DNA from: Escherichia phage 236Ecol005PP
Direction: 5' to 3' (one strand)
DNA: 64,000 nt
Sequence record: PP434423.1
The notes beneath the pieces were generated by a model. That model was not told where the DNA came from. It saw nothing but the letters and a program-made list of their open reading frames with translations, and did not search any database. Each line of letters opens with the position of its first letter. The stretch's first letter is position 1. The position numbers were made by a program, and so were the translations under genes. Positions 2,415-63,550 of the stretch are shown here, piece by piece.

Positions 2415-2450
2415 TTAATTATACCACATCCTTGTGGTAAAGTAAACTAC
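2415..2450 (-). promoter_or_regulatory. T4-type early promoter (minus-strand GTTTAC -35, ~18 bp spacer, TATAAT -10)
   Basis: plus gtaaac at 2442-2447 and attata at 2418-2423; palindromic spacer ccacaaggatgtgg. Confidence 0.55.
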
Positions 2451-4264
2451 TGTCTCATCCATTCTTTACGAAGGTCAGCATTATCTCCCATGAGCATTTC
2501 AAAAAGCTCTTTCCAATTCTCAGGAAGTTTAACAACATCATATACTGGATTTTGAATCATCTCACGATATTCAGATTTTTCCAGAGAGCCAAGTCCCTTA
2601 ATATAACGGATGCTATGTTTAGGTAGAGCATCTTTGGCACTCTCATATTCAGCGACTGTATAAAACCATTCTTGTTTTTTACCGACCTGAGCGATGATTA
2701 CAGGAGTTTTGACAAAGCGAATTCTTCCTTGTTCAAACAGTTCTGGCCAATTACTAAAAAATCCGAGCAGAGAAGGATAAATGCTTCCTAGACCATCATG
2801 GTCAGCATCGGTCATAATAGCAATATTATGATAATTCAAGTTTTCAGCCTTTTCACCAAGAACTAATCCAGTGATTGCGCAAATATCAAACAGTTCTTTG
2901 TTTTTAAGCATATCAGCATATGACATACCCCAACTGTTAAGAACTTTACCGCGCAATGGATAACCACCATGAAGTTCTTTATCACGAACATCAATAAGAT
3001 ATCCAATAGCCGAATCACCCTCAGTCAAGAAAAGAGTAGTGTCAGCATCTTTACCACAAAGATTCGCTTTAATATGTTTATGAACCTTAGCTTTAGAAAC
3101 CTTTTTAGCTGCTTTAGTTTCTGCTGCTTTTTCTGCCGCCAATTTACGAGCCAAGGCAGCTTCAATAATCGGCATTAAAATTGCTTCATTATTTAGAATA
3201 GCACGTGAAATCTTTTTAGCATCAAGCTGAATATGACTACGGATTTCACCAAATGGAGAAGTCAAACGCTCTTTAGTTTGAGAATCAAATCGCATGTTTT
3301 TCATATCACGAACAAACATAACGATAGTCAAACATTCTTTAACACGTGCTTTAGTTACATCAATTTTGAACTTGCGTTTGATTTGTGGAATAAGGTCTTC
3401 ACAAATATCATCCATAACACAGTCAATGTGATGGCCACCATTCTTAGTATGAATGTTATTGACGTACGTCAACTGACGAAAACCATCAGGTGAACGACCA
3501 ACCGCAATAGAACAATTTTCTTGTTCTTGAACGATAGCATGTTCATCATACTGCCGTGCATATTTCTTAAAATTACCCTGAACTTTTTTACCATTAAAGG
3601 TAAATTGAATATCAGGATAAACTACTGCAAGTGTCTGGAGACGATCTAATGTAATGTCAAGATAAACCTGAGATAGCTCATTAGTTTCAAATGACATAAA
3701 ATCAGGAATGAAAGTAACGCGAGTTCCTTTCCATTTTCCAGGAATATCTTCCCATGATTTATTTTCCATGCCATTTGAACAACGAACTACAATATTATTT
3801 TGACCATCACCAGTTTCACCAACAAACATCACAGAAAAAATGTTTGTCAAACTAGAACCAACACCATTCATACCGCCAGTGACGCGTTCTTTATCATCAC
3901 CGAAGTTACCACCTGCTTTTGGAATAGTCCATGCAGCAACAGGACCAGGAATTTCTTCGCCGGTAGGTGTTTTAACCATCGCCTGTGGAATACCGCGACC
4001 GTTATCTTCAACTGTTACTTGATTGTTTTTAATAGTAACATTAATTTTATTTGCGAATTTAAACTTAGTACGAATACCTTCATCTACTGAGTTATCGATA
4101 ATTTCATCAATAAGCTTAACAAGACCAGGTACATACTGAACACTTTCCCATTTACCAAACAGAAAGCGCTCATGCATTTCATTAGCTGAAGAGCCAATGT
4201 ACATGCCGCTACGCTTTTTGATATGTTCAATATCGCTCAGAATTTTAATTTCATTCTTAATCAT
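2447..4264 (-). CDS. 39: DNA topoisomerase II large subunit, GyrB-like ATPase plus Toprim in one uninterrupted ORF
   Basis: 605 aa from ATG at 4264 (GAGGA SD 6 nt upstream); ELVDNSVDE-like ATPase motif and LTEGDSA Toprim motif. Confidence 0.9.
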   Translation of the reverse strand: MIKNEIKILSDIEHIKKRSGMYIGSSANEMHERFLFGKWESVQYVPGLVKLIDEIIDNSVDEGIRTKFKFANKINVTIKNNQVTVEDNGRGIPQAMVKTPTGEEIPGPVAAWTIPKAGGNFGDDKERVTGGMNGVGSSLTNIFSVMFVGETGDGQNNIVVRCSNGMENKSWEDIPGKWKGTRVTFIPDFMSFETNELSQVYLDITLDRLQTLAVVYPDIQFTFNGKKVQGNFKKYARQYDEHAIVQEQENCSIAVGRSPDGFRQLTYVNNIHTKNGGHHIDCVMDDICEDLIPQIKRKFKIDVTKARVKECLTIVMFVRDMKNMRFDSQTKERLTSPFGEIRSHIQLDAKKISRAILNNEAILMPIIEAALARKLAAEKAAETKAAKKVSKAKVHKHIKANLCGKDADTTLFLTEGDSAIGYLIDVRDKELHGGYPLRGKVLNSWGMSYADMLKNKELFDICAITGLVLGEKAENLNYHNIAIMTDADHDGLGSIYPSLLGFFSNWPELFEQGRIRFVKTPVIIAQVGKKQEWFYTVAEYESAKDALPKHSIRYIKGLGSLEKSEYREMIQNPVYDVVKLPENWKELFEMLMGDNADLRKEWMRQ

Positions 4265-4316
4265 CACTTATCCTCGTTTGGTTTCGGGAATATTATACTC
4301 CAATAATCATAAAGCT

Positions 4317-4334
4317 AAAGGCCCGAAGGCCTTT
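4317..4334 (-). terminator. UUCG-tetraloop hairpin (terminator-like)
   Basis: aaaggcc-cgaa-ggccttt palindrome; U-rich 3' flank on minus strand. Confidence 0.45.
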
Positions 4335-4606
4335 TATTTAAAACGAATAGTTGAATCCTTAAAGAACAGCCCAGAACATACAGTTCCTTCTACTTTCTGC
4401 CCGGTAGGTCCAATAGCACGAAATCCAGTGTGTTGGAAATCATTTTCAGAGCAACCGAACCAATTATATCCAGTGATTTCAATATTAGTAAAACCACTTG
4501 AAGACAAAACTTTGGTTGCATTATCAGCATCAGTACATCCTATTAAAGACACTGCTAATACTAATGCTGCGATAGAACGATTAACATATTTCATAATTTC
4601 ACTCAA
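4334..4606 (-). CDS. putative secreted/lipoprotein
   Basis: 90-aa ORF with hydrophobic signal-like N-terminus followed by Cys (LIGC). Confidence 0.5.
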   Translation of the reverse strand: MSEIMKYVNRSIAALVLAVSLIGCTDADNATKVLSSSGFTNIEITGYNWFGCSENDFQHTGFRAIGPTGQKVEGTVCSGLFFKDSTIRFK

Positions 4607-4970
4607 ATTTAATGGCTTGAAGCAGACTAATAACTCTCAAGCGACTTCTTTCATCTTTAACTGTAAAGGAAAGAGGGTCACCAGATTTCATAGTGATAGT
4701 GCATCCAAAATCAAAATTTTCGGGAACTTCTTCGAAGAAGTCAAATTCTTCAGCATAAATTAGAACATTACTCTGCATACTGTGAAGAATTTTTCCGTCA
4801 TTTCCAGATGCTGTACTAATCATCGTAACATTATGACCTTTCATATCTTCAACGATAAATTCGCTTGTAGATATTACAGCATTAATAGAACCATTCCTAT
4901 AAATAGCAGACATTAGATATTTCTTTTCTTCGCCTTCGCGAATACGATATTTCTTACCGATTTTAAACAT
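4599..4970 (-). CDS. hypothetical protein
   Basis: ORF-track ORF; ATG at 4970 is third codon of the GTG-initiated track ORF. Confidence 0.5.
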   Translation of the reverse strand: MFKIGKKYRIREGEEKKYLMSAIYRNGSINAVISTSEFIVEDMKGHNVTMISTASGNDGKILHSMQSNVLIYAEEFDFFEEVPENFDFGCTITMKSGDPLSFTVKDERSRLRVISLLQAIKFE

Positions 4971-14970: not shown

Positions 14971-14978
14971 TATTTATA
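14971..14978 (-). promoter_or_regulatory. late promoter TATAAATA (for soc)
   Basis: plus tatttata about 30 nt upstream of soc ATG. Confidence 0.55.
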
Positions 14979-15648
14979 CATCTTCTTTTCTGAATAAGTA
15001 AATTAAATTCTTAAGAGCTGAACTTGTTACATCATATTTTCCTTTAAGCGCCTTTACAACCGGGCCTGTTGCTGGTTTACCTAAAGAAACCCATAACTCG
15101 TGTATTTCGCTTTTAAGTGGTTCATGCCAATGCGGTGCTTTTCTTTGCGCCCTTGAAGTTCCTTCTGAAATCTTTTTATTTCCGCCATTTGAATAAAACT
15201 TTTTCATTACTTCAGATTGCCGAGCTTTTCGTTCTGCTCTATTTTGGGCTATACGTTGTGAATTCTTCATCCGAGTTTTTGTTTCAGGGTTGTTTAATCT
15301 AAGTTTATGTTCTAATCGTTGTTGCTCAGTCCATTTTCTTCCTTCTCCACCCTGACCACCAGGAGAAATATTAATGCAAGTATCTGGGTGTTTACGTTTT
15401 AATGCAGATATTAGCTCGCGTTCAACTTCATATGATTTTTCTCTAGAACCATGGCATTTTGACCAACGTATTTTATAATTAAAACCATACTTACGATATA
15501 TGTTCCATAGTATTTTGCCTGAACCCGGATATTTATCATCATATGGATTTACAATAAATGATTCATGTTTTCCAGCGTACCAAAAGACGCCTTTCGGCGT
15601 CCTAACTTTTACTATATATGTTCTATAAAATTTTTGTTTAATACCCAT
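14974..15648 (-). CDS. segF: GIY-YIG homing endonuclease (SegF-like)
   Basis: GIY-YIG N-terminal motifs; 224 aa from internal ATG; lies between soc and 56 as segF does in T4. Confidence 0.65.
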   Translation of the reverse strand: MGIKQKFYRTYIVKVRTPKGVFWYAGKHESFIVNPYDDKYPGSGKILWNIYRKYGFNYKIRWSKCHGSREKSYEVERELISALKRKHPDTCINISPGGQGGEGRKWTEQQRLEHKLRLNNPETKTRMKNSQRIAQNRAERKARQSEVMKKFYSNGGNKKISEGTSRAQRKAPHWHEPLKSEIHELWVSLGKPATGPVVKALKGKYDVTSSALKNLIYLFRKEDV

Positions 15649-16184: not shown

Positions 16185-16216
16185 TTAATTATACAATAAA
16201 TATATAAAGCAATAAG
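16185..16216 (-). promoter_or_regulatory. middle promoter (MotA box ATTGCTTTA plus TATAAT) upstream of gene 56
   Basis: plus aagcaa 16207-16212 and attata 16188-16193. Confidence 0.45.
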
Positions 16217-16425: not shown

Positions 16426-17450
16426 ATCTTAGCATATTTAGATAGCCGCATTTTAGCCATTAACCCCTGGGCAATATTATTTTTCATATATTCCATAATT
16501 TGTTCAGGGGTTGCACCTTCCTTTCTAATCATATCATTAACATCTTTTGATTTCCAGGGAGATTTATCCCAAAACATAACCCTTTCTCCTGCATCAACTA
16601 ATTTAGTCATTCGTTTAATAGTGTCAGGGTGACGAGGTTCATTATCTAAGACCCACACTCGTCTATCTTTAAATGGAACAACTTCTAGGTCTAATTGACC
16701 ACCCGTAATAGCTATACCATTTTCAATAAAAAGTGAATCTATAGGTCCTTCTAGAACATATACATCACCATTTTTAACTCGTTCGACTCCATATATTTTT
16801 GTTGCCTCAGGATAAGCTTTGATGGTGATATATTTTTGAGGAGCATCTTTCTTTAATGCACGTCCTTGAAAAGACTCAGCTTTTCCATTAGCATTATAAA
16901 TTGGAATAACAAGACGAGGCTCAGGTATTTCCTTTTTATATGTTCCCGGTGCTATGCTATTAACTAATTTAGGCCATTCGGTTGTAAACCAAAGATATTT
17001 CCATTTGTCCTTTGGAATACAACGAGCTTTTACGTATTTTATAATTGGATGGTCTTCCGCCAGTTTATCTAATCTAATGCATGACGGAAGAGATTTAATT
17101 ATTTTCTTCTCAGGTTGTTTAGGAAGTTCTTTAGGTTTTTCTACTGGACGACTTTTACCTTTTTCTTTTCTTATTTCAAAGATATACTCACGATATAAAT
17201 CAGGTTCAAACTCCTTTAAATATATTCCGATTGGTGCATGATAGTTGCAGTTATAACAATGAATATTTCCTTCATTATTATCGCCATAATACCATCCACG
17301 GGCTTTATTTTGGTCGGTTTTTGAATCTCCACAAACAGGGCATCTAAACCGCAATTTAAAAGTTGAACTATTATTTACTTGTGTGAATTTAGGTAAATGA
17401 GCTAATGCACGGTATGCAAACTCATTATCAATCCAAGGTATTGATGACAT
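16422..17450 (-). CDS. 61: DNA primase
   Basis: 342 aa; N-terminal zinc-binding CPVCGDS...CYNC and Toprim-like core. Confidence 0.9.
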   Translation of the reverse strand: MSSIPWIDNEFAYRALAHLPKFTQVNNSSTFKLRFRCPVCGDSKTDQNKARGWYYGDNNEGNIHCYNCNYHAPIGIYLKEFEPDLYREYIFEIRKEKGKSRPVEKPKELPKQPEKKIIKSLPSCIRLDKLAEDHPIIKYVKARCIPKDKWKYLWFTTEWPKLVNSIAPGTYKKEIPEPRLVIPIYNANGKAESFQGRALKKDAPQKYITIKAYPEATKIYGVERVKNGDVYVLEGPIDSLFIENGIAITGGQLDLEVVPFKDRRVWVLDNEPRHPDTIKRMTKLVDAGERVMFWDKSPWKSKDVNDMIRKEGATPEQIMEYMKNNIAQGLMAKMRLSKYAKI

Positions 17451-17452
17451 TT

Positions 17453-17617
17453 TTACTCTTCTTTTTCTTTAGATTCCTCTTTTTTCTTTTTAGGAATCTG
17501 TTCAGGACCTTTATTTACTACAGCGCCTGACGTTGTTCCGGTAGAGATATTTTCAGGATTACCGCCTGAATCTCCAGCGACCATATCTTCTTTAATAAAT
17601 TCTTTATATGTTTTCAT
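17453..17617 (-). CDS. small hypothetical protein (61.1 position, sub-threshold ORF)
   Basis: 54 codons, MKTYKEFIKEDMVAGDSGG...; stop 2 nt before gene 61 start. Confidence 0.35.
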   Translation of the reverse strand: MKTYKEFIKEDMVAGDSGGNPENISTGTTSGAVVNKGPEQIPKKKKEESKEKEE

Positions 17618-17618
17618 A

Positions 17619-18230
17619 TTAACCTCTATTCATAAAAGCATTAAAAATTTGGTCATCAATAGACTGTTTTTCTGATGGTAATTCATATCCACATATTACA
17701 ATTTTGTGATCAATATCAAAATACACAGAAGCAATATGATTAATGATGTTTTCAGTAAAGTCTAAATCAACATCAATATCTTTTTGACCACAGCCCAAAG
17801 GATAAATAATGCGAGTAATTCGATTATCTTTAACAAAGATTCCACCGACATACTCTGTGCTGCGTTTAAAGTCTACACGCCGACGAAATGAAAAATATTC
17901 AGGCTCTTTATGAGCTCGGCTCATAGGACACAACGAGTAACTAGAATAAGAGATGTCAAATCCTACGCCTTCAATATGAGCCAAAGTATCATGATTAAAC
18001 CAATTATAATCGTACGCCAAATCCATTAAATTATAATATGTAAAAGGCACCGGATTAACATCATTAGTCACAAGCATGTAATTAGCAACTGCTATAATTT
18101 CATTGTTTTTAACGAATACAAACCGCGATTGATGTGAATGACCTGGACCCGCGTTTTCACGATTAATGATATAACACTGGGCACCTTTATATTTGTATGT
18201 ATCTTTGCACTTGTGCATTTGATAGAGCAT
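17619..18230 (-). CDS. hypothetical protein (61.2 position)
   Basis: 203-aa ORF. Confidence 0.5.
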   Translation of the reverse strand: MLYQMHKCKDTYKYKGAQCYIINRENAGPGHSHQSRFVFVKNNEIIAVANYMLVTNDVNPVPFTYYNLMDLAYDYNWFNHDTLAHIEGVGFDISYSSYSLCPMSRAHKEPEYFSFRRRVDFKRSTEYVGGIFVKDNRITRIIYPLGCGQKDIDVDLDFTENIINHIASVYFDIDHKIVICGYELPSEKQSIDDQIFNAFMNRG

Positions 18231-22039: not shown

Positions 22040-22338
22040 TCATTTTTTCCATAAGCATCATTATATTTTCCTCACGGTTTAATAGAGGGTTTATACTTAG
22101 AGTAACTACATTAAAACTTATTTAAGATAGAATAATTTTATCACTCAATCTTTTAGCATTATCGCTTGAAGTCTCAGTTAACTGGGCGTTTGGCTATTCG
22201 ATGAAATTCTCTCTTTTCTAACCAACATAACAAAAAGTCCCAAAAAAGCAAACAGACCTAAACCGATAAAGCAACAAAGGTCCTAACATTTATTCCACCG
22301 GTTAAAGATAAATAACTTTCTAATAATAGTTCATAATT

Positions 22339-23393
22339 TTATAAGTCAATAGCTTTTTTGAACGCATCTTGCCATTCGGCTTTCTTTGCACGAGTTTTAT
22401 TTAAAATATCATGTTGAATAGAAAGCATCTCTTTACGTAAAGCATCACTGCGTTTTAACTCATTGACTCTATCAATGAGTTCAGCACGATTATTTACATA
22501 AAAACGAGCATCATTAATAATTCGATGTTTGGTATCAAATTCTTCATCAATTAGCATCACCGCATCAGATGCCATTGTTTCCCAGACGCGTAAGGTAATA
22601 AAGTTGTCATTGTAATTCTTGTCACCAATAATTAATGCAACGATAGCTTGACTATTCTTTTCAGATACCATTTCATAGGAATTTTTCCAGTGAACACTGG
22701 AGCTTTGGTCCAAGGATATTTAGGATTTTTAAATTGTTTTTCTCGTGCAGTGCCAAAAAACTCAATATTTAAACCTGTGTCAAATAAGAATTCTACCATC
22801 TTGGATTCGCGTTGACCAGACCGAAATGAACCACCATAAATAACATCCAAAGTTTTCTTGGTAGGCTTAGATATTTGAAAATCGTTTATATGAATTTTAT
22901 ATTGTTCAATAGGAAAATATTCGAATTCAATAACATTATCAACTTTCTTATGCGCAGCCTTAGCAATGTTTAAATTTATACCTTGGGAAATCACTTTAAT
23001 TGGTGATTTAATTAATAGCTCTTCTTCAGTGTACAAATATGCCCATGGTCTATTTTTAACATTTGGCCAAGACTGAGAAAATGGCAAACGTATATCTGTA
23101 AATAAATAATAAATTTTACTTTTGTATTTTGCCATAAATTTTTGCGCAGATAAAACTGCTAAATTAGGTTTACCACCAAAAAAGTTAATAGAAGAATTAA
23201 CAACTATCAAACGGTCATAATCATTAACATCTACTTCATCAAAAGATTTAGTGTAAACATCATTTTTAAGAGAAATAATGTCGACATTAAGACCCATTTC
23301 AGAAATAGCTTTAAAAAGATAAATAGTTTCAGAAGATGAAATAGTTTTAAAATCAATAACATTATTACCCATATTAATTATAGCAATTTTCAT
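22339..23393 (-). pseudogene. bgt: DNA beta-glucosyltransferase, apparently disrupted by a -1 frameshift near 22670-22676
   Basis: two adjacent-frame ORFs (253 aa N-terminal, 124 aa C-terminal) whose joined length is about 351 aa; junction KIPM / MVSEKNSQ. Confidence 0.6.
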
Positions 23394-31240: not shown

Positions 31241-32923
31241 TTAAACCATTACAGTAAACCGACCAACTTTCTTCATTTGAAGATGCTGACCATATTCTTG
31301 CGGGTCATGGTCTTTATGCGAAATTATAAAAACATTAGTATTTTTCATTGAATTTATAATATTAGCTACGCCTTTAATACCTTCGGCATCAAATGACCCA
31401 TCAAACACTTCATCAAGAATTAATGTACTAATACTAACACCAGATACGATAGAAGCAATATCACGCCAAGTAAATAAAAGAGCAATATCGATTCGTGCTT
31501 TTTCACCTTCACTAAATGAAGCATAACTAAAATCTTCACGACCACGTGATTTAATTGTCTCATTAAATTCTTCATCTAATGTAAACACATAATCCGCTTC
31601 CATTATTTTAAGATAATGGTTAATCTGCTTATTAAATAATGGAATGTACTTTTTAATAATAGCGCCTTTAATACCAGAATCTTTGAGCATATCAGTCAAA
31701 ATTCCTCTATGGTATTTTTCCATTACTAAATTAGTTTTTGTCTTAACAATTTTATCAAGTTCTTCTTGAAGCAGTGCTATTTCATCAGCATGGTCAATAA
31801 ACTCAGATGATGCTTTTTCTATAGCTGCTTTAACTTTTTTAGCTTTATCTACCGTCGTGATTAAGGATTGCTTTTTATTGCGAATATCATTTGCCAACGT
31901 CTGCTGGGTTTTAATATTATCTCGGTATTCATCAACAAGAACTTTTAAATTATCACGATGTGTTGAAAGCTGTTCAAATGAATGCGTACATTCAGAAACT
32001 TTATCTTTAATTTTAGAAACAACTTTATCACCGGAACTTAATTGTGACAAACAGGTTGGACATAATCCACCTTCGTGATACATATTAATGACTTTATTAT
32101 ACGAATCAATTTTTGATTTAATTAAAAATGCTTCTTGACCGATTTTATTAAATGCATCAGTCGGGTCTTCATCCAAAACAATATTAACTAATCTTTCATT
32201 AGCTTCTTCTATTTCCGATTTTAACGTTTTAGCTTCTTTCGCCAAATCATCATACATATTCTGCAGACGAGTAAGGTTATCACCAGTTAATTTTTTCTGG
32301 CGTTCAACGTTATCATTATATATTTTAATTTGTTGGATAATACTATCTTTTTTAACATCAAGCACTTGGTTTTGTGAATTTAATTCACGTATTAGTGCTT
32401 TATTAAGCTTATCCATTTCAGCTAATGTTCCTACCTCAAGCAGGTCTTCCACAAGCTTTCTTCGCGCAGGGGTCGACAAACCCATGAAAGGGGTATACCC
32501 TGCTGTACCAAGGACAACAATCTGCTTGAAACTGGCATATGACATTCCGATAAGCTGTTCAAATTCTGCTTGGAAATCTTTACTGCTGGCAGATTCATTA
32601 AGACGTGTACCGTTAACGGTGATTTCGAAAACGTTTGGTTTTTGTCCTCTTTTGATATAGTACTTTTTCTCATCATATTCCATCCACAGTTCAACTAAAA
32701 GTTCTTTCTTATTTGTGCTGTTTATTAATTGACCTTTCTTTACATCACGAAATGGCTTGCCAAAAAGCCCAAATGTGATGGCTTCTAACATAGTAGACTT
32801 ACCACCGCCATTTCGTCCAGTAATAAGAGTTTTTTGAACCTTATCTAGTTGAATGTCAATAGGATTTCCACCTACTGACATTATATTTTGATACCTAACT
32901 CGGTTTAGTTTAAAATTCTTCAC
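31241..32923 (-). CDS. 46: recombination nuclease subunit (Rad50/SbcC-like ATPase)
   Basis: 560 aa; Walker A GRNGGGKST; coiled-coil with CPTC zinc hook. Confidence 0.9.
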   Translation of the reverse strand: MKNFKLNRVRYQNIMSVGGNPIDIQLDKVQKTLITGRNGGGKSTMLEAITFGLFGKPFRDVKKGQLINSTNKKELLVELWMEYDEKKYYIKRGQKPNVFEITVNGTRLNESASSKDFQAEFEQLIGMSYASFKQIVVLGTAGYTPFMGLSTPARRKLVEDLLEVGTLAEMDKLNKALIRELNSQNQVLDVKKDSIIQQIKIYNDNVERQKKLTGDNLTRLQNMYDDLAKEAKTLKSEIEEANERLVNIVLDEDPTDAFNKIGQEAFLIKSKIDSYNKVINMYHEGGLCPTCLSQLSSGDKVVSKIKDKVSECTHSFEQLSTHRDNLKVLVDEYRDNIKTQQTLANDIRNKKQSLITTVDKAKKVKAAIEKASSEFIDHADEIALLQEELDKIVKTKTNLVMEKYHRGILTDMLKDSGIKGAIIKKYIPLFNKQINHYLKIMEADYVFTLDEEFNETIKSRGREDFSYASFSEGEKARIDIALLFTWRDIASIVSGVSISTLILDEVFDGSFDAEGIKGVANIINSMKNTNVFIISHKDHDPQEYGQHLQMKKVGRFTVMV

Positions 32924-33135: not shown

Positions 33136-33370
33136 CCTTAATACAAGATACAGCCATATCTTGTAATGATTTAGGTGTGTCATTATCTAAAATGTTGAAG
33201 TTAAAAGATACAGCCCAGTCAGTGCAGACCGTAACCTTTTTAATACAATTATCTTCAACTTCTAGCGGTTCAAACCAATATTCAATAATTTCTTTATGCC
33301 CAATATCATCTTTTACTTCGCATTCAAAATGCTGACTCATCATATCATTTTTAAATTCATCAAAAGTCAT
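33107..33370 (-). CDS. hypothetical protein (46.2 position)
   Basis: 87-aa ORF. Confidence 0.45.
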   Translation of the reverse strand: MTFDEFKNDMMSQHFECEVKDDIGHKEIIEYWFEPLEVEDNCIKKVTVCTDWAVSFNFNILDNDTPKSLQDMAVSCIKDAYCEVFDI

Positions 33371-34386
33371 TGTGTTGCCTCTACATATAGCTGATTTGCA
33401 TATTGAATAAGTGCTTCGCGGTCAGAATCAGTGATGTCTGGAATTGCATTAATGTATTCTTCCATCAACGTCTGAAGAGATTGAACTTCAACTTCTTCAC
33501 TATCATCTGACTCGACAGAGTTATCAATCTTTGACACAACTCGTAATGAATGCACAACTTTTTCTAGTTCAGATTCGAACTTCGTTAGATTTTTGTCTAC
33601 TTCAGTTACTATAACACGTACTGATAGATTTGTAAAATCTTTATAGTCAATTTTTCCCTTAAATGGATATTGAATTCGACGATGCCAGGTAGTGTTGTTT
33701 GGAATAAATTCCATTCGTTCTGTTTCTGTATCAAACATCCAGAACCCGCGAGGGTCATTCTCGTCACCTGCAGTTAGTGTCCATGGTGTCCCAATATATC
33801 TGACGTTAGCAGCCTCAGAGATAGTATGGAAGTGACCAGACCACACCTCTTTATAAGTCTTAAGGAAATCAGGTTCAAGACCGTGAGATTTCATTCCTTT
33901 ATAAAAATAAAATCCATTCAGCTCCCAGTGACCAACACAAAAAGAAGCAGATGAAGTTTTGATGTGTTCAAGAATTTCACCAGTATTTTCTTCGCACATC
34001 CAAGGAATTAAATCAATCAAACATCCGTCAAAATCTACTGTAGTAGGCTTATCATATACTTTAACATTAGGATATTTAGCCAAAAGCTCAGTAGAAGCAT
34101 TTGGATGCATTACATTTTTATAGTGGAGATCGTGATTTCCTACAATAGTATGTAATGTGATTCCAGCGGCATCAAGCATTTGAACTATTTCACGAGCAAA
34201 CTCCATAGTTTTATGCGTGATCGCTTTTCGTACATCAAAAATATCACCGTATTGAATCCATGTAGTAATTCCATTTTTCTTAGAATATTCTATCGCTTGT
34301 TTAATTCCATCAATTTGAATACCGCGAATCCATTCATCATCAGCTTTAACGCCTAAATGCCAATCACCCAAGTTTAGTATTTTCAT
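33367..34386 (-). CDS. 47: recombination nuclease subunit (Mre11/SbcD-like phosphoesterase)
   Basis: 339 aa; MKILNLGDWHLG and GNHD phosphoesterase motifs. Confidence 0.9.
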   Translation of the reverse strand: MKILNLGDWHLGVKADDEWIRGIQIDGIKQAIEYSKKNGITTWIQYGDIFDVRKAITHKTMEFAREIVQMLDAAGITLHTIVGNHDLHYKNVMHPNASTELLAKYPNVKVYDKPTTVDFDGCLIDLIPWMCEENTGEILEHIKTSSASFCVGHWELNGFYFYKGMKSHGLEPDFLKTYKEVWSGHFHTISEAANVRYIGTPWTLTAGDENDPRGFWMFDTETERMEFIPNNTTWHRRIQYPFKGKIDYKDFTNLSVRVIVTEVDKNLTKFESELEKVVHSLRVVSKIDNSVESDDSEEVEVQSLQTLMEEYINAIPDITDSDREALIQYANQLYVEATQ

Positions 34387-34987
34387 GGTGTCTTTTCCAT
34401 CCTAATTTAGCTGCTTTTGAAACTAGTTCTTTAATTTTTCCTTTTGTCCATTCAGGACCAGGAGGTTCATGACATAACATTTGCTTAACTCCGTTATTAT
34501 ACCATTTTTTACCTTTATTATGTGATGAAGCTTTAAATTTATTTGACCTTCCTTTTACATAACCTTCTGGAATATACGGTAAAAAGGCAGATTTTCCTGT
34601 TAATGGGTCATGTGAATGTATGTTTCCTTTACAATTATGAGAACCATATAATGGATGATTTTGTCCTTTAATATCTCTTCCAAATGAACCTTTTGGAGCA
34701 GCATATGACATATTAAAGAATAATGGATTTTTAACCGCATTATGCAAACGTTGATAATATAGCTCGCATTTAATAGCTTCTTCGCGCGTATCAAATTCAT
34801 CTAAAATGCATGAATCAAATAAATGTGGGTTATTTGAAAGTTCTTCATTATAAATTTTCTTATACTTTTTAGATAAAACTGATCCATGATAGCCGGCTAA
34901 ATGCCTATCTAAAGATGTAGATCCAATATAAAAAGGAGGAAGTTTATCTCCACTATATATTGTTAAATAAGTTATATATTTTTTCAT
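34364..34987 (-). CDS. GIY-YIG homing endonuclease (Seg-like)
   Basis: 207 aa; LTIY ... FYIGST GIY-YIG motif; C-terminal KKWYNNG motif. Confidence 0.65.
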   Translation of the reverse strand: MKKYITYLTIYSGDKLPPFYIGSTSLDRHLAGYHGSVLSKKYKKIYNEELSNNPHLFDSCILDEFDTREEAIKCELYYQRLHNAVKNPLFFNMSYAAPKGSFGRDIKGQNHPLYGSHNCKGNIHSHDPLTGKSAFLPYIPEGYVKGRSNKFKASSHNKGKKWYNNGVKQMLCHEPPGPEWTKGKIKELVSKAAKLGWKRHHENTKLG

Positions 34988-35147
34988 ATATCAAGAACCG
35001 TCATTGAAATGCAAAATAAAATTATTGAAATAAATCCATCTGGAGTACTAAAGAACCCAATCCAACATGCTCTAGCAAATAGATAAAATGCAAGAAAAAG
35101 TATCACATATCCAAGAAATATCATTATATCAAACTCCATATAAAGCT

Positions 35148-35165
35148 AAAGGGCCGAAGCCCTTT
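35148..35165 (-). terminator. UUCG-tetraloop hairpin after agt
   Basis: aaagggc-cgaa-gcccttt overlapping agt stop codon. Confidence 0.45.
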
Positions 35166-36366
35166 ATTTTGTAATAATGTCAAACTGTTCTTTAAAGCAG
35201 AAGCTTGAATCTTGGTGCTGATACAAAAATTCATAAGCTTTTTCACGTTCACGGTCATAAAGAGCTCGGTCAGATGACAGTTCTTTAATACGTTCGAGTG
35301 TCGATTCCATGTCATTTTCATCAAACCAAATGATACCGCTATCATGCGAGGTCAAAGGAGTATTATCAACACGGAATTTCAAATTATCACCCGTTGATTT
35401 CCAGAAAACAGGAATTGTACCACAAGCACCTAATTCAAGATGAGTATATTCGAGTGAGCGTTGTAAGTATTTCTGGTTAAGTTTACTCAACTGATATCCA
35501 AAGCCAGATTTACTCATTCGTTCAAGCATTTCACTATTAATATAACAATCTAGGATTTGTGCCGGTTGATTCGGCGCGAGATTCATTTTATCAATCTCAC
35601 GATTACCGTAATATTCATGCGGAATACCTTTTTCCTTAATTGCAATAAAAGCAGGGGAACGTTCAAGACCTTCCATTACAGTGGATTTACCAGCAGGTTT
35701 TAAGAATTTTTCATGAAAATCAAACATCTGATAAAAACCTTTCCATGTAGTCGTACGACCAATCCAACGGTTGATGTTCATGTTAATTTCAGAAACATCT
35801 TTCCAATAAGTTGACCGAACCTTCGCAATATCCATAGGAGGCTGAAAATTATATACTGTTGGTGCTTCTTCAATATCATCAAACAGAGAAACAGTTTCTG
35901 GATACCATTCTTTCATCAGAACTTTATTAAAATCACCATTATCAGAATGGCTAAAAATAACATCAGCTCGACGAACAGTTTCTTCTAATCCCAAATTTCG
36001 ACGCAAAGAAAGCACAGAATGATCATGCTGATAAACTACAACACGAATAGAAGGTTTAATATTATCTAAGAGTTTTTTATAGTTATTAATCGTAGCTTCT
36101 TGAACGGAAGTAGCAGGAACAGAATTAATAATTAGAATATCACAATCATTAATCAATTTAAGTGCTTTATCGTATTCTTTAGCTAAAATAACTGGAATTG
36201 AAAATGATTTGTGGTCATGAGAACTTGTACGAGTAAATGATTTATCTTTAGCATAAACCAGAGTTACTTCATGACCATTTTTAATGAACCAATCACGTTG
36301 CTCAAGAGAAAATTTAGTTACGCCGCAACCTTCAAGACCCCGAGCCATAAAAATGCATACTTTCAT
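35164..36366 (-). CDS. agt: DNA alpha-glucosyltransferase
   Basis: 400 aa; sequence MKVCIFMARGLEGCGVTKFSLEQRDWF... matches recalled T4 Agt. Confidence 0.9.
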   Translation of the reverse strand: MKVCIFMARGLEGCGVTKFSLEQRDWFIKNGHEVTLVYAKDKSFTRTSSHDHKSFSIPVILAKEYDKALKLINDCDILIINSVPATSVQEATINNYKKLLDNIKPSIRVVVYQHDHSVLSLRRNLGLEETVRRADVIFSHSDNGDFNKVLMKEWYPETVSLFDDIEEAPTVYNFQPPMDIAKVRSTYWKDVSEINMNINRWIGRTTTWKGFYQMFDFHEKFLKPAGKSTVMEGLERSPAFIAIKEKGIPHEYYGNREIDKMNLAPNQPAQILDCYINSEMLERMSKSGFGYQLSKLNQKYLQRSLEYTHLELGACGTIPVFWKSTGDNLKFRVDNTPLTSHDSGIIWFDENDMESTLERIKELSSDRALYDREREKAYEFLYQHQDSSFCFKEQFDIITK

Positions 36367-36384
36367 TTAATATCCTCATTGTTT

Positions 36385-40701: not shown

Positions 40702-41172
40702 TTAATCATGTTTCCACACCCCATCGGTATTTGACCAAAGTCGCTGATTATCTGAACCTCGCCACAGCTTTTTGGTCGGAAGATTTTTCTCATACTTCCC
40801 ATCAATAATAACATCAACATATTTAAGCATTTCTAGTTGTTTAATATCTTCAAACTTATATCCTGTCCACAACCAAATGCTTTTATTCGGATAAAGATTT
40901 TTTACTGTTTGAACAATGCAATGAACAACATCTCGGTTATCAGGATAAAGAGGGTCACCTCCAGTTATAGTTAATCCTTCTATATAATCATTATTCAAAC
41001 ATTCAATTAATTGTTCTAGTGTTTCACCAGTGAATGGAACGCCATTTCTAGCATTCCAAGTACTACGATTATAACAACCTTCACATTTATGCAAACAACC
41101 TGTAACGAAAAGAACGACCCTGCATCCAGGGCCATTCACAAAATCGCAAGGATAAAATCTATCATAATTCAT
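40702..41172 (-). CDS. nrdG: anaerobic ribonucleotide reductase activating protein (radical SAM)
   Basis: 156 aa; CLHKCEGC radical-SAM cysteine cluster. Confidence 0.9.
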   Translation of the reverse strand: MNYDRFYPCDFVNGPGCRVVLFVTGCLHKCEGCYNRSTWNARNGVPFTGETLEQLIECLNNDYIEGLTITGGDPLYPDNRDVVHCIVQTVKNLYPNKSIWLWTGYKFEDIKQLEMLKYVDVIIDGKYEKNLPTKKLWRGSDNQRLWSNTDGVWKHD

Positions 41173-42448
41173 TGGTGTTTAACCCTATGCATGATTTCTT
41201 TATTTTTGCCGAGATTAAATCCACGTTCGTTCGGATTTCCCAAATAACCACAAGTTCTTCTTATTGTGTTCATCTTTTTAGGATCAGTTTCTCCACAAAT
41301 AGAACAAACAAATCCGTTTTCAGTAGGAGTCATTTCATGAGTGCTTCCACACGTAAAACATTTATCTACTGGCATGTTAACACCAAAATAATCTAAATGT
41401 TGTGCAGCATAATCCCATACAGCCTCAAGACCTTTTAGGTTATTTTTCATATCAGGAAGTTCAACATAAGAAATGTGACCGCCTGTTGCAATGAAATGAT
41501 ACGGGGCTTCGCGAGAAATCTTTTCAAACGGAGTAATATTTTCTTCTACTGAAACGTGGAAACTGTTAGTGTACCAGCCTTTATCAGTAACATCCTTTAC
41601 ACTTCCATATTTTTCTGTATCAAGTTTACAGAAGCGATAGCAAAGGTTTTCAGCAGGAGTAGAATACAAGCTAAAAGCAAAACCGGTTCTTTCAGTCCAC
41701 TGCTTAAGACGAGCATTCATTTTAGTTAAAATTTCCTGTCCAATATCACGACCGACAAGAATATTCAATTCGTGAATACCAATGTATCCTAGGGACACTG
41801 AACTTCTACCGTTTTTAAATAACTCAATTATGTCGTCATCAGGTTTAAGACGAACCCCGAATGCACCTTCTTGGTAAAGAATAGGAGCAACAGTCGCTTT
41901 AACTCCTTTTAAGGAACTAATTCTACACATCAATGCTTCAAAACACAAATCCATTCGTTCATTGAACAATTCGGCAAATTTCTGTTCATTGAACTGTGTT
42001 CCAATATAAGAATCTAATGCAATACGAGGAAGATTCAGTGTTACAACACCAAGATTATTACGTCCATCAAGAATTTCATTACCAGTCGAATCTTTCCATA
42101 CGCCCAAGAAACTACGGCAACCCATTGGAGAAACAGGAATAGATGAACCAGTGATAGCTTTATTGTTCTTAGCTGAAATAATATCAGGATACATTCTTTT
42201 ACTTGCACACTCTAGAGCAAGCTGCTTAATATCATAGTTCGGATCGTCTTTATAAAGATTAACACCTTCTTCAACGAACATAACAAGTTTAGGGAAAATA
42301 GGAGTTATCCCATCACGACCAAGACCTTTAATACGATTTTTCAGAATTGCTTTCTGAATCATTCGTTCAGTCCAGTCAGTTCCCGTACCAAATGTAATTG
42401 TTACAAAAGGCGTTTGTCCGTTAGAGCTGAAAAGTGTATTTACTTCAT
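41169..42448 (-). CDS. nrdD: anaerobic ribonucleotide reductase NrdD, exon 2 (boundary approximate)
   Basis: glycyl-radical enzyme C-terminal region with C-terminal Cys cluster; 3' splice site placed after a G at 42449 so exon1+exon2 = 605 aa. Confidence 0.65.
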
Positions 42449-42474: not shown

Positions 42475-43246
42475 TCATGCCCGTTTATATGAAACAACAA
42501 AATTTGGATAGTCCATAGATATGCAACGTTCTTTTATAGTGCTAGGATGAAAATTTAGCGCTTTAGCTGCTTCTATATAAGACGTATACTTAATACCGTC
42601 AACAACCACATATTCAGGAACTTTATGAATAGTAGCCTTAATACTCAAAACAAGAGGATGAGTTTCGACTTCACTTTCAGTGCAATTTAAATATTCCGCT
42701 GCTTTTTTAAAACTTCTAAAAGTTTTATTTTTAAGCTTTATCGATACTTGTTTTTTACTTTTTCGACTATTGATATTATTTTGCACATGTTCCTTAGATC
42801 TTCCGTTTTTAGCATAATATTCAGCTACAGAAGATTTTATATTGTTTTTATGAGATTCGGATAACACTTTACCCTTATGAGCATCTCTTAATTTTTGAAT
42901 ATGTTCCTTCAGTATCCGGATGCTTATAAAACTTTTTACCGCCTATGGATTTATTTAAACATTTTTTGCTATAAAAATATTTACGTATGACCTCTTCTTC
43001 ATGTTTTAATGCATCTTTATAACTATCAAATGTTTTTAAAATTATCCATTTAGTAGGTGTATCAGTTTTTAAGCGTTCATTTATATACTTAGATGACGTT
43101 GTGTAAGTTTTCCAGTTTGTGGGCTTGTTTTTAATTGTTCTAAATTTTTTATAACCGATATAAATGTCGCCATTAGAAAACTTAACTAAGTATGTAAATG
43201 CGTCTTTATCTTTTATTTTAGTACAACGTCTTTTTATCCATTTCAT
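42475..43246 (-). pseudogene. intron-encoded GIY-YIG homing endonuclease (I-TevII-like), apparent frameshift near 42925-42935
   Basis: N-terminal GIY-YIG ORF (123 aa) and C-terminal ORF in adjacent frame; joined length about 257 aa; shift at GGTAAAAAGTTTT run. Confidence 0.55.
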
Positions 43247-43275: not shown

Positions 43276-43283
43276 TATTTATA
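43276..43283 (-). promoter_or_regulatory. late promoter TATAAATA inside intron, upstream of endonuclease ORF
   Basis: plus tatttata about 30 nt upstream of ORF ATG at 43246. Confidence 0.5.
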
Positions 43284-52206: not shown

Positions 52207-52926
52207 TTAGGATTCTTCTAAATGTCTTTTCTGAAAAGTTGATACCATACTACGATACGGTTCATTTGGATATCCGTGTTTTATAGCTTCCTTTGTAAAT
52301 TTTCTCCATCCATATTTAGTTTCTTTCCAAAGCTCGAATAATTCATCTTCATACTGCCATATAGTTAAATGAGAACGCTTTGCAGCTTTAATTCCATTAA
52401 TATGCTTTTCTTTTACTGCAGGATTGCTTAGTTTCTTTTTAATAATATTACTAACTTTTCTAACAAAAACTGGGTCCTTATATCGTTGCGAAGTTTTTAT
52501 TGAAGTGTTTAATTTAACTTCCGGCGTGGATGTAACCTCTTTCATCTTTTTCTTCATATGCTGTATATGATTAGGATTTTTCCATAAATTTATAGAATGC
52601 TTTTTGCATTTTATCCTAGTTTCATCTGCAACCTTTCCTCCTTCACCCCCGTATGACAGGTTAACACAGTTTTTTCCATATTTCAATTTACCTGCCATGA
52701 TATATAATATTTCAGCTTGTACCATTTTATCATAATTATCAAAAACTTCTAAAACCGTTTTTGATAATATGTGGTCATTTGACACTTTTACACGTTCTAT
52801 ATAATTTCCACTACCAACATACGAATCATTGATGTTATTAGTTATATGTCGACCATAATAGTATTTCTTAATACCTGTCTTTAAATTTAATATTTCAGTT
52901 TTATAGATAGTAAAATATTTTTTCAT
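52207..52926 (-). CDS. GIY-YIG homing endonuclease-like protein
   Basis: 239 aa; KYYYGRH ... SYVGSG motif and basic C-terminal half. Confidence 0.55.
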   Translation of the reverse strand: MKKYFTIYKTEILNLKTGIKKYYYGRHITNNINDSYVGSGNYIERVKVSNDHILSKTVLEVFDNYDKMVQAEILYIMAGKLKYGKNCVNLSYGGEGGKVADETRIKCKKHSINLWKNPNHIQHMKKKMKEVTSTPEVKLNTSIKTSQRYKDPVFVRKVSNIIKKKLSNPAVKEKHINGIKAAKRSHLTIWQYEDELFELWKETKYGWRKFTKEAIKHGYPNEPYRSMVSTFQKRHLEES

Positions 52927-54007: not shown

Positions 54008-55021
54008 TCATTTATAATAACTTCGGTGGTTTTCAAGATAAACCCTCTCAAGGAAGTCATCCCAGAAACCCATGTCTACTTTTTGCTGCATACCGTTCTT
54101 AGAAGCTTCAATGGATGCTGCTTCTACTTGATCGACCACATCTTCCAAAAACTCTTGAACAGTTTTAAATGGGTGTTTACCCAGCTTCACGTCGAGAATA
54201 AATGGAGCGTCTTGAAGTGGATAGACTAAGTCACCAGTTTTGTAAATTTCCAATAGTTGGAGTCCACCACGACAAGCATGACTCAGAGCTTTCCAATCAA
54301 TGCCTTCATTAGCTTCAGCTTTACGAGCACGTTCACCATATTCAGCATCAAGTTTATTCAAAGACTGCTTAAGCTCAATAAGAGAAAGTGTTGTCTGATA
54401 TTTACGACCCAACACAGTGTAGAACGTTTGTGGGCCTGTTTTCTCATGATTATGGAATACCCATTCACAGAATTCGTTTTCTGGAAGACGGTGTTTAATA
54501 TCTTCAACTTTAGTGCGACGTTGTCCTTGTGTTCCATCTTCTCGGTAATCAACCCACTGGTCAGGGATTTGATTAACTACTTTCAATACATCACGTAATG
54601 CGGCCAAACGAGAACCCTTGACACCGTATTTAGAAGCTTGCTTGCGAACATATCCTAAATAGGATTTCATGTTAGTCGTATAAAAACGAGAACGATTGTC
54701 TTGAATAAACTTCCATACATCAGGCAAATCAGATTTAACTACCAGTTCAGGTGGAGTGTGGAGCATATCCAATGCTACAGTTTCACCATCTGCTGCTAAT
54801 TTAAAGAAATACTTAAGACTGTATAGTTCATGGTCAATATCATCTTTAGTGTTTTTAGATGATGTGTTATTAGTGTTTTTACTCATATGCTCTTTAACAT
54901 TTCCGATAAGAATATCGCGAGCAGGAGGAACAAAGATTTCTTTAAAATCTACATCAGATTCTGGAGTAGAAGTTCCATAAAGATGACTACCAAAATAGCT
55001 TTTCATTACTGTTTTCATCAT
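54008..55021 (-). CDS. putative nucleotidyltransferase-fold protein
   Basis: 337 aa; N-terminal GS-x9-SDVD motif (FGSHLYGTSTPESDVDF). Confidence 0.45.
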   Translation of the reverse strand: MMKTVMKSYFGSHLYGTSTPESDVDFKEIFVPPARDILIGNVKEHMSKNTNNTSSKNTKDDIDHELYSLKYFFKLAADGETVALDMLHTPPELVVKSDLPDVWKFIQDNRSRFYTTNMKSYLGYVRKQASKYGVKGSRLAALRDVLKVVNQIPDQWVDYREDGTQGQRRTKVEDIKHRLPENEFCEWVFHNHEKTGPQTFYTVLGRKYQTTLSLIELKQSLNKLDAEYGERARKAEANEGIDWKALSHACRGGLQLLEIYKTGDLVYPLQDAPFILDVKLGKHPFKTVQEFLEDVVDQVEAASIEASKNGMQQKVDMGFWDDFLERVYLENHRSYYK

Positions 55022-55479
55022 TCAGCCTTATATTCAATAACAGGACATACTTTAGCTTTACGCGCTTTTAAAAATTCGACGATAATAGATTTCTTGGGTT
55101 GAATAGGAGGTAAACCTTTATACGCCCTATCAATATTTTCTACATGTAAAGCATAATCCTTTTTCCATTTATAATCTTTATATTTTTCATGCAATTGTGC
55201 AGGAATAACAAATGAACCAATAATAAGTAAAACAAGCAAAATAGCAAGTATAAATGCTGATGGAATAAGAGTCCATAAACTACCAAAAATAAGCCATTTC
55301 TGTATGATTTCTGCACAGATGATAGTTAGACCTGCGAGTATAGTACATCCGAAAAAAGAAACGAAAAATGTAGGAATGACAATAGACCAAAAGTATGCAC
55401 ATAGTGTCTTAGGTCGTTTCCATTCATCATTAAACATTTTGAATAATTTATAGTGCCAAGAGCTTTCATTAATAATCAT
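55018..55479 (-). CDS. membrane protein
   Basis: 153 aa, three to four predicted TM segments. Confidence 0.5.
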   Translation of the reverse strand: MIINESSWHYKLFKMFNDEWKRPKTLCAYFWSIVIPTFFVSFFGCTILAGLTIICAEIIQKWLIFGSLWTLIPSAFILAILLVLLIIGSFVIPAQLHEKYKDYKWKKDYALHVENIDRAYKGLPPIQPKKSIIVEFLKARKAKVCPVIEYKAE

Positions 55480-55481
55480 AA

Positions 55482-56003
55482 TTATCCTTTCATTGAAGGT
55501 GTAACAGTTGTTAAATACTTAATCATAGCTTCAGCTTCTGATTTTGATAATGAAATTTCTCCATTGTTTTGACGAATAGAAATAAAATCCGGATGACGGT
55601 CACCACCAGCTTTTAAAATACACATATAAGTATCAGTTTCATCTTCAATATCTGAAATGATTGAAGCAGTTCCGCATGAATGTGGTTTTTGATAAATCAA
55701 TGCAGCTTTTCTTCCACCGTTTGACTGTTCATAAACTTTTAACACATCAAACAAATCGCTTCTTTTATCAATAGCTAAGATGTTGTTTTCATCTTCAATG
55801 TTAAATCCTTCGGATACTTCATAAAGTGTCACCCATAAATCGCCAATATCAATGACAGCATTCACCTTTCCATGATTTTCAAGAGCATTACAAATTTTCT
55901 TGATTTCGTCATAACTCATTTTAATAATATCATCTCCTTGAATAAGGAAGATGTCATTTTTAAATTCAACACGAATTAAACCGCTTTCACTTGAAATAAA
56001 CAT
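55482..56003 (-). CDS. hypothetical protein (tandem paralog 1)
   Basis: 173 aa; C-terminal motif shared with next ORF. Confidence 0.5.
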   Translation of the reverse strand: MFISSESGLIRVEFKNDIFLIQGDDIIKMSYDEIKKICNALENHGKVNAVIDIGDLWVTLYEVSEGFNIEDENNILAIDKRSDLFDVLKVYEQSNGGRKAALIYQKPHSCGTASIISDIEDETDTYMCILKAGGDRHPDFISIRQNNGEISLSKSEAEAMIKYLTTVTPSMKG

Positions 56004-63373: not shown

Positions 63374-63550
63374 TTTATTCTCTCTAAATTTGGGCCATTC
63401 CATGGCGCATGAATTGTCCATTTCTGTATTTACCCATTACCGCACTTGGGCTCGACCTTATTACAGGTTGGCGGGAATCCCTCATAGAATCATGAGGTCC
63501 AGGTTGTTCCCATGTTATTTGAATGTAAATAGGCCTAAGTATCGGCCTTA

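Follow-up and report, generated by a model that had tools for sequence, protein, structure and literature searches.

An open reading frame (ORF) of 207 amino acids (aa) in Escherichia phage 236Ecol005PP is probably a functional, free-standing Seg-type GIY-YIG homing endonuclease gene which targets the start of gene 47. The ORF (34364..34987, minus strand) begins with ATG, and the N-terminus of its product reads MKKYITYLTIYSGDKLPPFYIGST. It is located in a stretch of 64,000 nucleotides (nt) from sequence record PP434423.1, referred to here as the window, which covers the 64 kb next to rIIA in a T4-like phage (Tequatrovirus). The new elements of this study are the exact anatomy of the insertion, three allele classes that predict the target, and a conserved address across genera. 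Literature searches found no paper naming, describing or testing this gene or its protein, and the public records label it mostly as hypothetical, 'homing endonuclease' or, in error, 'HNH endonuclease'.

The gene stands free between two intact neighbours, 47.1 and 47, rather than inside an intron or intein. An earlier reading of the window made from the letters alone (the sequence-only reading) had recognized the ORF and placed it, less precisely, between gene 47 and agt. In T4 these two genes adjoin directly, the ATG of gene 47 and the stop codon of 47.1 sharing the sequence ATGA. Base-level alignment revealed a single clean 601-bp insertion relative to T4 exactly at this point (34387..34987, minus strand as are all features in this paragraph), which multi-genome alignments showed to be absent from T4, T2 and most relatives. 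In the window it is the endonuclease ATG, in place of the gene 47 ATG of T4, that shares ATGA with the TGA stop of 47.1, and the last 23 nt of the endonuclease ORF form the start of gene 47 (overlap at 34364..34386). The inserted ORF and gene 47 both begin with ATGAAAA, so that a 7-bp direct repeat brackets the insertion, with one copy at the endonuclease start (34981..34987) and the other at the gene 47 start (34380..34386) in the T4 alignment. Gene 47 (33367..34386), the presumed target gene, encodes an Mre11/SbcD-like nuclease subunit and shows 96% nucleotide identity to T4 gene 47. The 47.1 homologue (34984..35124) has 46 aa by T4's start, the ORF lister starting it at 35139.

Sequence profiles and a structural model support the placement of the 207-aa protein as a putative GIY-YIG enzyme of the Seg group. 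In an alignment with 30 homologues, the residues Y7, T9, Y11, G13, P17, Y20, I21, G22, S23, Y33, G35, S39, Y42, F57, A71, E75 and N92 are invariant. The GIY and YIG motifs, about 10 residues apart, appear as T-I-Y11 and F-Y20-I-G, of which Y11, Y20, I21 and G22 are invariant among 31 homologues. So are E75 and N92, which stand at or just beyond the end of the Pfam match (residues 4-84) and were equated with the metal-binding Glu E75 and the structural Asn N90 of I-TevI from their place in the order of motifs rather than by superposition. An AlphaFold model built on the alignment of the window protein and the 30 homologues gave a confident N-terminal catalytic domain (residues 1-95; 34703..34987, minus strand) with the beta-beta-alpha-alpha-beta-alpha order of the GIY-YIG fold. 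The top structural match to this model in PDB was the catalytic domain of I-TevI (1LN0), and further neighbours were PD-T4-3, the UvrC N-domain and Eco29kI (ranks 2-4), T4 EndoII (6) and SLX1 (10); four of the five best are GIY-YIG proteins. The family profile aligned with T4 SegA in hhalign over 182 columns (95.5% probability, E 1.4e-8), from the YIG motif via 'GYxGS' and the Glu to the Asn. Pairwise BLASTP comparisons to Seg proteins were marginal only; sequence searches of PDB with the single protein and with a 31-sequence profile returned nothing relevant, and NCBIfam gave no match to the protein. Against an I-TevI sequence, hhalign matched a NUMOD3-like stretch alone and not the catalytic domain, and the fold comparison was therefore used.

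The C-terminal region (residues ~113-185; 34433..34651, minus strand) is presumed to be the DNA-binding part. It consists of two similar modules of about 32 aa with the form SHNxKG...P(E/P)G(Y/W)xKG(R/K), the first reading SHNCKGNIHS...IPEGYVKGR and the second SHNKGKKWYNNG...PPGPEWTKGK. Each is predicted to form a beta-hairpin, with strands at 123-126/133-136 and 161-164/169-172 in the AlphaFold model, and no family in Pfam or NCBIfam matched the region. KKWYNNG, which the sequence-only reading took as typical of Seg and I-Tev proteins, occupies residues 160-166 within the second module and is shared by 44 of 120 homologues. As T4 SegA, SegF and I-TevII and the SegA-like ORF at 52207 of the window all lack it, that description is not borne out for the Seg and I-Tev proteins compared. 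The longer homologues (249-311 aa) carry an extra domain ahead of the tail, '...LW...G(F/Y)PNxxY...F', which is also found in SegA and in the 52207 ORF.

The distribution of the gene among relatives is that of a polymorphic insertion. A scan of IMG/VR with gp47 yielded only 28 loci, the gene being present in none of the Tequatrovirus ones, and the annotated phage collection was therefore used for the counts, with a junction match defined as at least 80% of the query covered. The empty T4 junction (a 120-nt query) matched 465 records, the occupied junction matched 68, and the insert DNA at 95% or above was found in 68. Overall, about 68 records carry the gene compared with about 435 with an empty site, that is, around 13% of the records having this locus. 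The site is empty in T4 and T2, and 47.1 abuts 47 there. The view of the ORF as a Seg-like GIY-YIG gene lacking in T4 and variable among relatives is thus borne out by both the SegA profile match and these counts. A cluster of near-identical proteins contains 55 members. No record in the phage collection is identical to the window. The closest relatives, Pu-Krd-SF4 to SF7, also have an empty site (over the first 25 kb of the window Pu-Krd-SF6 and SF7 are nearest, with SF6 as the best match at 97.5%). The flanking variants are mosaic: within about 50 nt of the site, carriers and non-carriers can have identical gene 47 haplotypes, and the a-gt allele is T4-type in the window compared with an allele of about 87% identity in other carriers. 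KNP1 and KNP5 were considered as copies with a 124-nt internal deletion; the record is marked 'UNVERIFIED' and has a run of N at that position, and they were not counted as decay.

Several relatives have another gene between 46 and 46.1, namely PhiZZ23, Lutter, SHFML-26, BCPEco_001 and T2, annotated as 'homing endonuclease' in four of the five; the window has no gene at this position (32920-32923). The block of genes 46 and 47 looks like a hot spot for genes of this kind, on either side.

Carriage of the gene is linked to a few synonymous changes at the start of gene 47. When the 3-kb region from a-gt to gene 47 was aligned for seven carriers and seven non-carriers, only the columns at 34378, 34377, 34372 and 34369 had disjoint alleles. 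All four are synonymous changes in codons 3-6 of gene 47, inside the 23-nt overlap, where the gene starts with ATG AAA ATA CTA AAC TTG in carriers compared with ATG AAA ATT TTA AAT TTA in non-carriers; the overlap is a candidate target or immunity determinant. Three allele classes were distinguished across the collection with 64-nt synthetic junctions as queries. Class A, in which the gene is present beside carrier-type codons 3-6, accounts for 65 of 66 occupied junctions. Class B has carrier-type codons and no gene, and comprises nine records from eight phages (BCPEco_001, BCPSen_003, PBM-1, Ec_YwIITB1, SHFML-26, UGKSEcP1, UGKSEcP2 and EPIMAM01). Class C, with T4-type codons and no gene, includes about 421 records, and RB14 is intermediate, with three mismatches. 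The lone gene copy beside T4-type codons, in ERS-1, was rejected as a clean exception or a case of decay, its record being marked 'UNVERIFIED_ORG' and containing 16 insertions or deletions in 2.9 kb, six of them in the ORF. No verified intact copy of the gene adjoins T4-type codons.

Class B may be the product of a deletion between the ATGAAAA repeats or, alternatively, the allele that the gene first entered. In PBM-1 the carrier-type changes stand on an otherwise divergent gene 47 haplotype, indicating that the 10-nt block moves alone. In Dhakavirus, too, the carrier QL01 differs from non-carriers at synonymous positions in codons 3-6.

The same address is occupied in other genera. In at least six other T4-like lineages, homologues sharing the C-terminal half immediately precede the gene 47 homologue (Metallophos), with gene 46 (SMC/AAA) next in line; they come from Klebsiella phage KP185 (Jiaodavirus), QL01 (Dhakavirus), Aeromonas phage L9-6, Erwinia phage FBB1, Serratia phage LC53 and a metagenomic T4-like contig, and most of them overlap the gene 47 start by 14-23 nt. 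The conserved tail of the family, (H/N/Y)-E-N, is what xAT GAA AAT encodes where the ORF runs over ATGAAAAT of gene 47. Immediately after it comes the sequence for the G-D-W-H-L-G phosphoesterase motif, which is identical in many non-carriers, some of other genera; such a stretch would be the typical kind of target for a homing endonuclease. A paralogue in Yersinia phage TG1 (gp009, 2155-2838) resembles the window protein in its N-terminal domain (about 45-70% protein identity, and 69-70% DNA identity over the first half), but its C-terminal half consists of NUMOD3 repeats and its site is different, being upstream of and overlapping the topoisomerase gene 39. The NUMOD3 relatives look like a catalytic domain that has been swapped onto a new target.

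The endonuclease protein is under purifying selection, the ratio of non-synonymous to synonymous divergence (dN/dS) being 0.03-0.19 in summary. Among the Tequatrovirus copies it was 0.00-0.17, apart from two near-identical pairs with higher values and too few changes to be informative. It was 0.18-0.19 against the orthologue of the Klebsiella phage KP185 and 0.10-0.15 against that of QL01. Both halves of the protein are alike in this respect (0.03-0.24), and the values for gene 47 were 0.02-0.06. The synonymous divergence (dS) between copies was on a par with that of gene 47, with maxima of 0.17 over the whole gene and 0.26 in the N-domain. None of the seven Tequatrovirus copies examined has a disrupted reading frame, nor have the short forms of two other genera (61-68% identical).

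The endonuclease is a promoterless 601-bp cassette inside the a-gt/47.1/47/46 transcription unit. The upstream neighbour a-gt, the gene for alpha-glucosyltransferase, lies at 35164..36366 (minus strand), and a GC-rich terminator-like hairpin is found just past its stop (35147..35166, minus strand). The sole candidate promoter between a-gt and the endonuclease is a promoter-like element read from the sequence, TTTAGCTTTA-N12-TATAAT (35123..35148, minus strand), and the equivalent position is annotated as 'promoter' in phage Lutter. The late promoter TATAAATA occurs four times in the window and not upstream of the endonuclease ORF, and sigma-70-like sites were no more frequent than in shuffled sequence. 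With the 35123..35148 element as the only candidate, the gene therefore appears to be transcribed together with genes 47 and 46, and it is probably translated by coupling. No RNA structure hiding the start sites of the endonuclease or gene 47 was found (z-scores +0.4 to +2).

From the ORF, its relatives and the linked sites, we infer cleavage activity, a target position and homing for the 207-aa protein. During mixed infection, a co-infecting phage without the gene would be cut by the enzyme in the start region of its gene 47. Repair of the break from the carrier genome would then spread the gene together with nearby markers, and carriers may be protected both by the insertion itself and by the four synonymous changes in codons 3-6. 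Characterised Seg enzymes behave likewise, as published for SegB (PMC2330249) and in an inventory of the T4 endonucleases with their insertion sites and targets (PMC2988022).

T4 SegA, located between uvsX and beta-gt, is a useful comparison: it is likewise free-standing, belongs to an early/middle gene cluster, shows the YIG...GYxGS...E...N pattern, and is present in some T-even phages and absent from others. However, pairwise identity is only about 19%, the insertion site and the neighbour gene are different, and SegA has a C-terminal 'GFPNKSY' domain where the window protein has the two beta-hairpin modules. The activity of SegA has been published (PMC2988022), whereas that of the window protein is only predicted. 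I-TevI differs in being intron-encoded and in having a zinc finger and a helix-turn-helix.

'Intronless homing' by SegF and SegG was reportedly described by Belle et al. in 2002 and Liu et al. in 2003, with cut sites and marker exclusion measured. These systems share with the window gene a position wedged between two genes and carrier and non-carrier alleles that differ by nearby polymorphisms; they cut a conserved neighbour gene of phages that do not carry them, such that the gene and nearby markers are preferentially inherited. For the window gene, cut sites and marker exclusion are only predicted, and this gene differs further in having no detected promoter of its own and in overlapping both neighbours.

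Several observations weigh against a homing endonuclease aimed at the gene 47 start. The dS values, as high as those of gene 47, indicate a gene that is old in the genus and not a recent invader. The cut sites of known Seg enzymes are often hundreds of bp away from the gene itself, and the four linked sites, instead of conferring immunity, could be a scar left by the original transfer. The 207-aa short form does not have the C-terminal 'G(F/Y)PNxxY' domain, which makes its DNA-binding ability uncertain. The searches for late and sigma-70-like sites gave the gene no promoter of its own. In place of R27, the Arg after YIG in I-TevI, the window protein has R28, but family members have R, K, Q or N in this column, and the nearly invariant R68 is elsewhere than the I-TevI position. 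Finally, the match to the Pfam GIY-YIG family (PF01541) scored 21.4 bits (E 3e-4), below the gathering threshold of 22.6; similarly weak matches were obtained for 15 of 31 family members.

Part of this evidence would suit a nuclease that has been domesticated or retained by the phage for a purpose other than its own spread, for example for excluding competitors, for recombination or amplification near genes 46/47, or for translation coupling of gene 47, with homing being rare or absent. Purifying selection as strong as on gene 47, a dS at least as large and hence a long residence, the placement kept across genera and the overlap with the gene 47 start all fit this explanation, and a host-beneficial role has recently been reported for SegB (PMC13096335). 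Nevertheless, it is considered unlikely: carriage in only some 13% of records, varying among close relatives, fits a mobile and dispensable element; T4 and T2 do well without the gene; and purifying selection is also expected for an element that repeatedly re-invades. The missing domain of the long forms, common with SegA, together with the low Pfam score and the variable Arg position, could alternatively indicate an inactive remnant, in which the 207-aa form has lost its C-terminal DNA-binding domain and specific cutting and persists by linkage only. This has a rather small probability given the low dN/dS in both halves, the frame kept intact in seven Tequatrovirus copies and in the short forms of two other genera, and the 55-member cluster of near-identical proteins.

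The two other alternatives carry hardly any weight. PHROGs assigned the protein to phrog_10820, labelled 'HNH endonuclease', and to phrog_314, labelled 'homing endonuclease', and the HNH label also appears in RefSeq records. These database labels are all that favours an HNH enzyme; no HNH family was found in Pfam at E values up to 1, the motifs are those of GIY-YIG proteins, and so are four of the five best structural neighbours, making this identity extremely improbable. An ordinary conserved T4-type gene, present throughout, is dismissed outright, as the insert is missing from T4 and T2 and 47.1 abuts 47 in these phages and in about 435 records. A functional Seg-type homing endonuclease gene therefore remains the probable reading.

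The window also contains other mobile genes. The sequence-only reading counted four GIY-YIG elements in it, and all four loci were found, although the ORF of the nrdD intron proved to be frameshifted. The segF-like gene (14974-15648) is indeed a SegF orthologue, 99% identical to T4 SegF over 224 aa. A SegA-like ORF of 239 aa (52207-52926, minus strand), lacking in T4, separates the homologues of nrdC.9 and nrdC.10, with only 38 nt at this point in T4; it has a C-terminal 'GYPNEPY' domain as in SegA, and its C-terminal half is weakly like T4 MobD (23% identity). The I-TevII-like ORF of the nrdD intron (42475-43246, minus strand) is split into 42875..43246 and 42475..42867 by a +1 frameshift, one extra base relative to T4 near 42870, and is quite diverged from T4 I-TevII; it is either a pseudogene or the product of a sequencing error. 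A late-promoter motif TATAAATA is found beside it at 43276-43283.

The sites of mobA and segA were rightly said to be empty, the T4 mobA/60.1 segment and segA being absent from the window. The departure from the T4 set of endonucleases is larger than had been claimed: the HNH genes mobB and mobC are cleanly absent at 36358-36381 and 41151-41173, and the mobD segment (55023-55984) is replaced by ORFs 55018-55479 and 55482-56003, which are not endonucleases and are assigned by PHROGs to a membrane protein and an unknown function. With mobA, mobB and mobC absent and mobD replaced, the 64-kb window contains no T4 mob gene.

Further differences from T4 are found elsewhere in the window. Gene 39 (2447-4267, minus strand) encodes a single unsplit topoisomerase subunit of 606 aa, with no gene 60 split or bypass region. 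Just upstream of it is a 371-nt segment absent from T4 (4597-4967), and a plus-strand ORF of 188 aa nearby (4197-4763) has no PHROG match. The beta-glucosyltransferase gene (22338-23393, minus strand) has a 1-nt deletion relative to T4 near 22671, changing ATGAACATGG to ATGAA-ATGG, so that the ORF ends at 253 aa instead of 351 and the remainder is in another frame; either the gene is inactive or the missing base is a sequencing error. The T4 segment for the Dam methyltransferase (T4 16826-17724) is absent at ~16194-16213, as is that of denV and ipII (T4 64939-65816) at ~63512-63533, and tblastn with T4 Dam, DenV and IpII found nothing in the window.

Free-standing homing endonucleases are among the chief sources of mosaicism and marker exclusion in T-even phages, and to our knowledge only the T4 set of these enzymes has been studied. 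A gene of this kind is normal for T-even phages and will not surprise a specialist, yet the present one provides a precise and testable guess at a cut site. It is common, being found in around 13% of sequenced relatives and, in other versions, in several other genera. Natural test substrates are available: T4 and T2 are predicted to be sensitive, while empty sites of the SHFML-26 type and carrier genomes are predicted to be resistant. One carrier, the BASEL phage FriedrichMiescher, is in a public phage collection.

A tentative extension of these results is that the family may have specialized over a long time on a single address, the gene 47 start codon, in many T4-like genera, with the three allele classes representing stages of gain, immunity and loss. 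This suggestion draws support from the last codons being written over ATGAAAAT of gene 47, from the gene 47-like selection and from the three allele classes. If the four synonymous changes are indeed an immunity determinant, the enzyme would target the very gene whose product resects its breaks.

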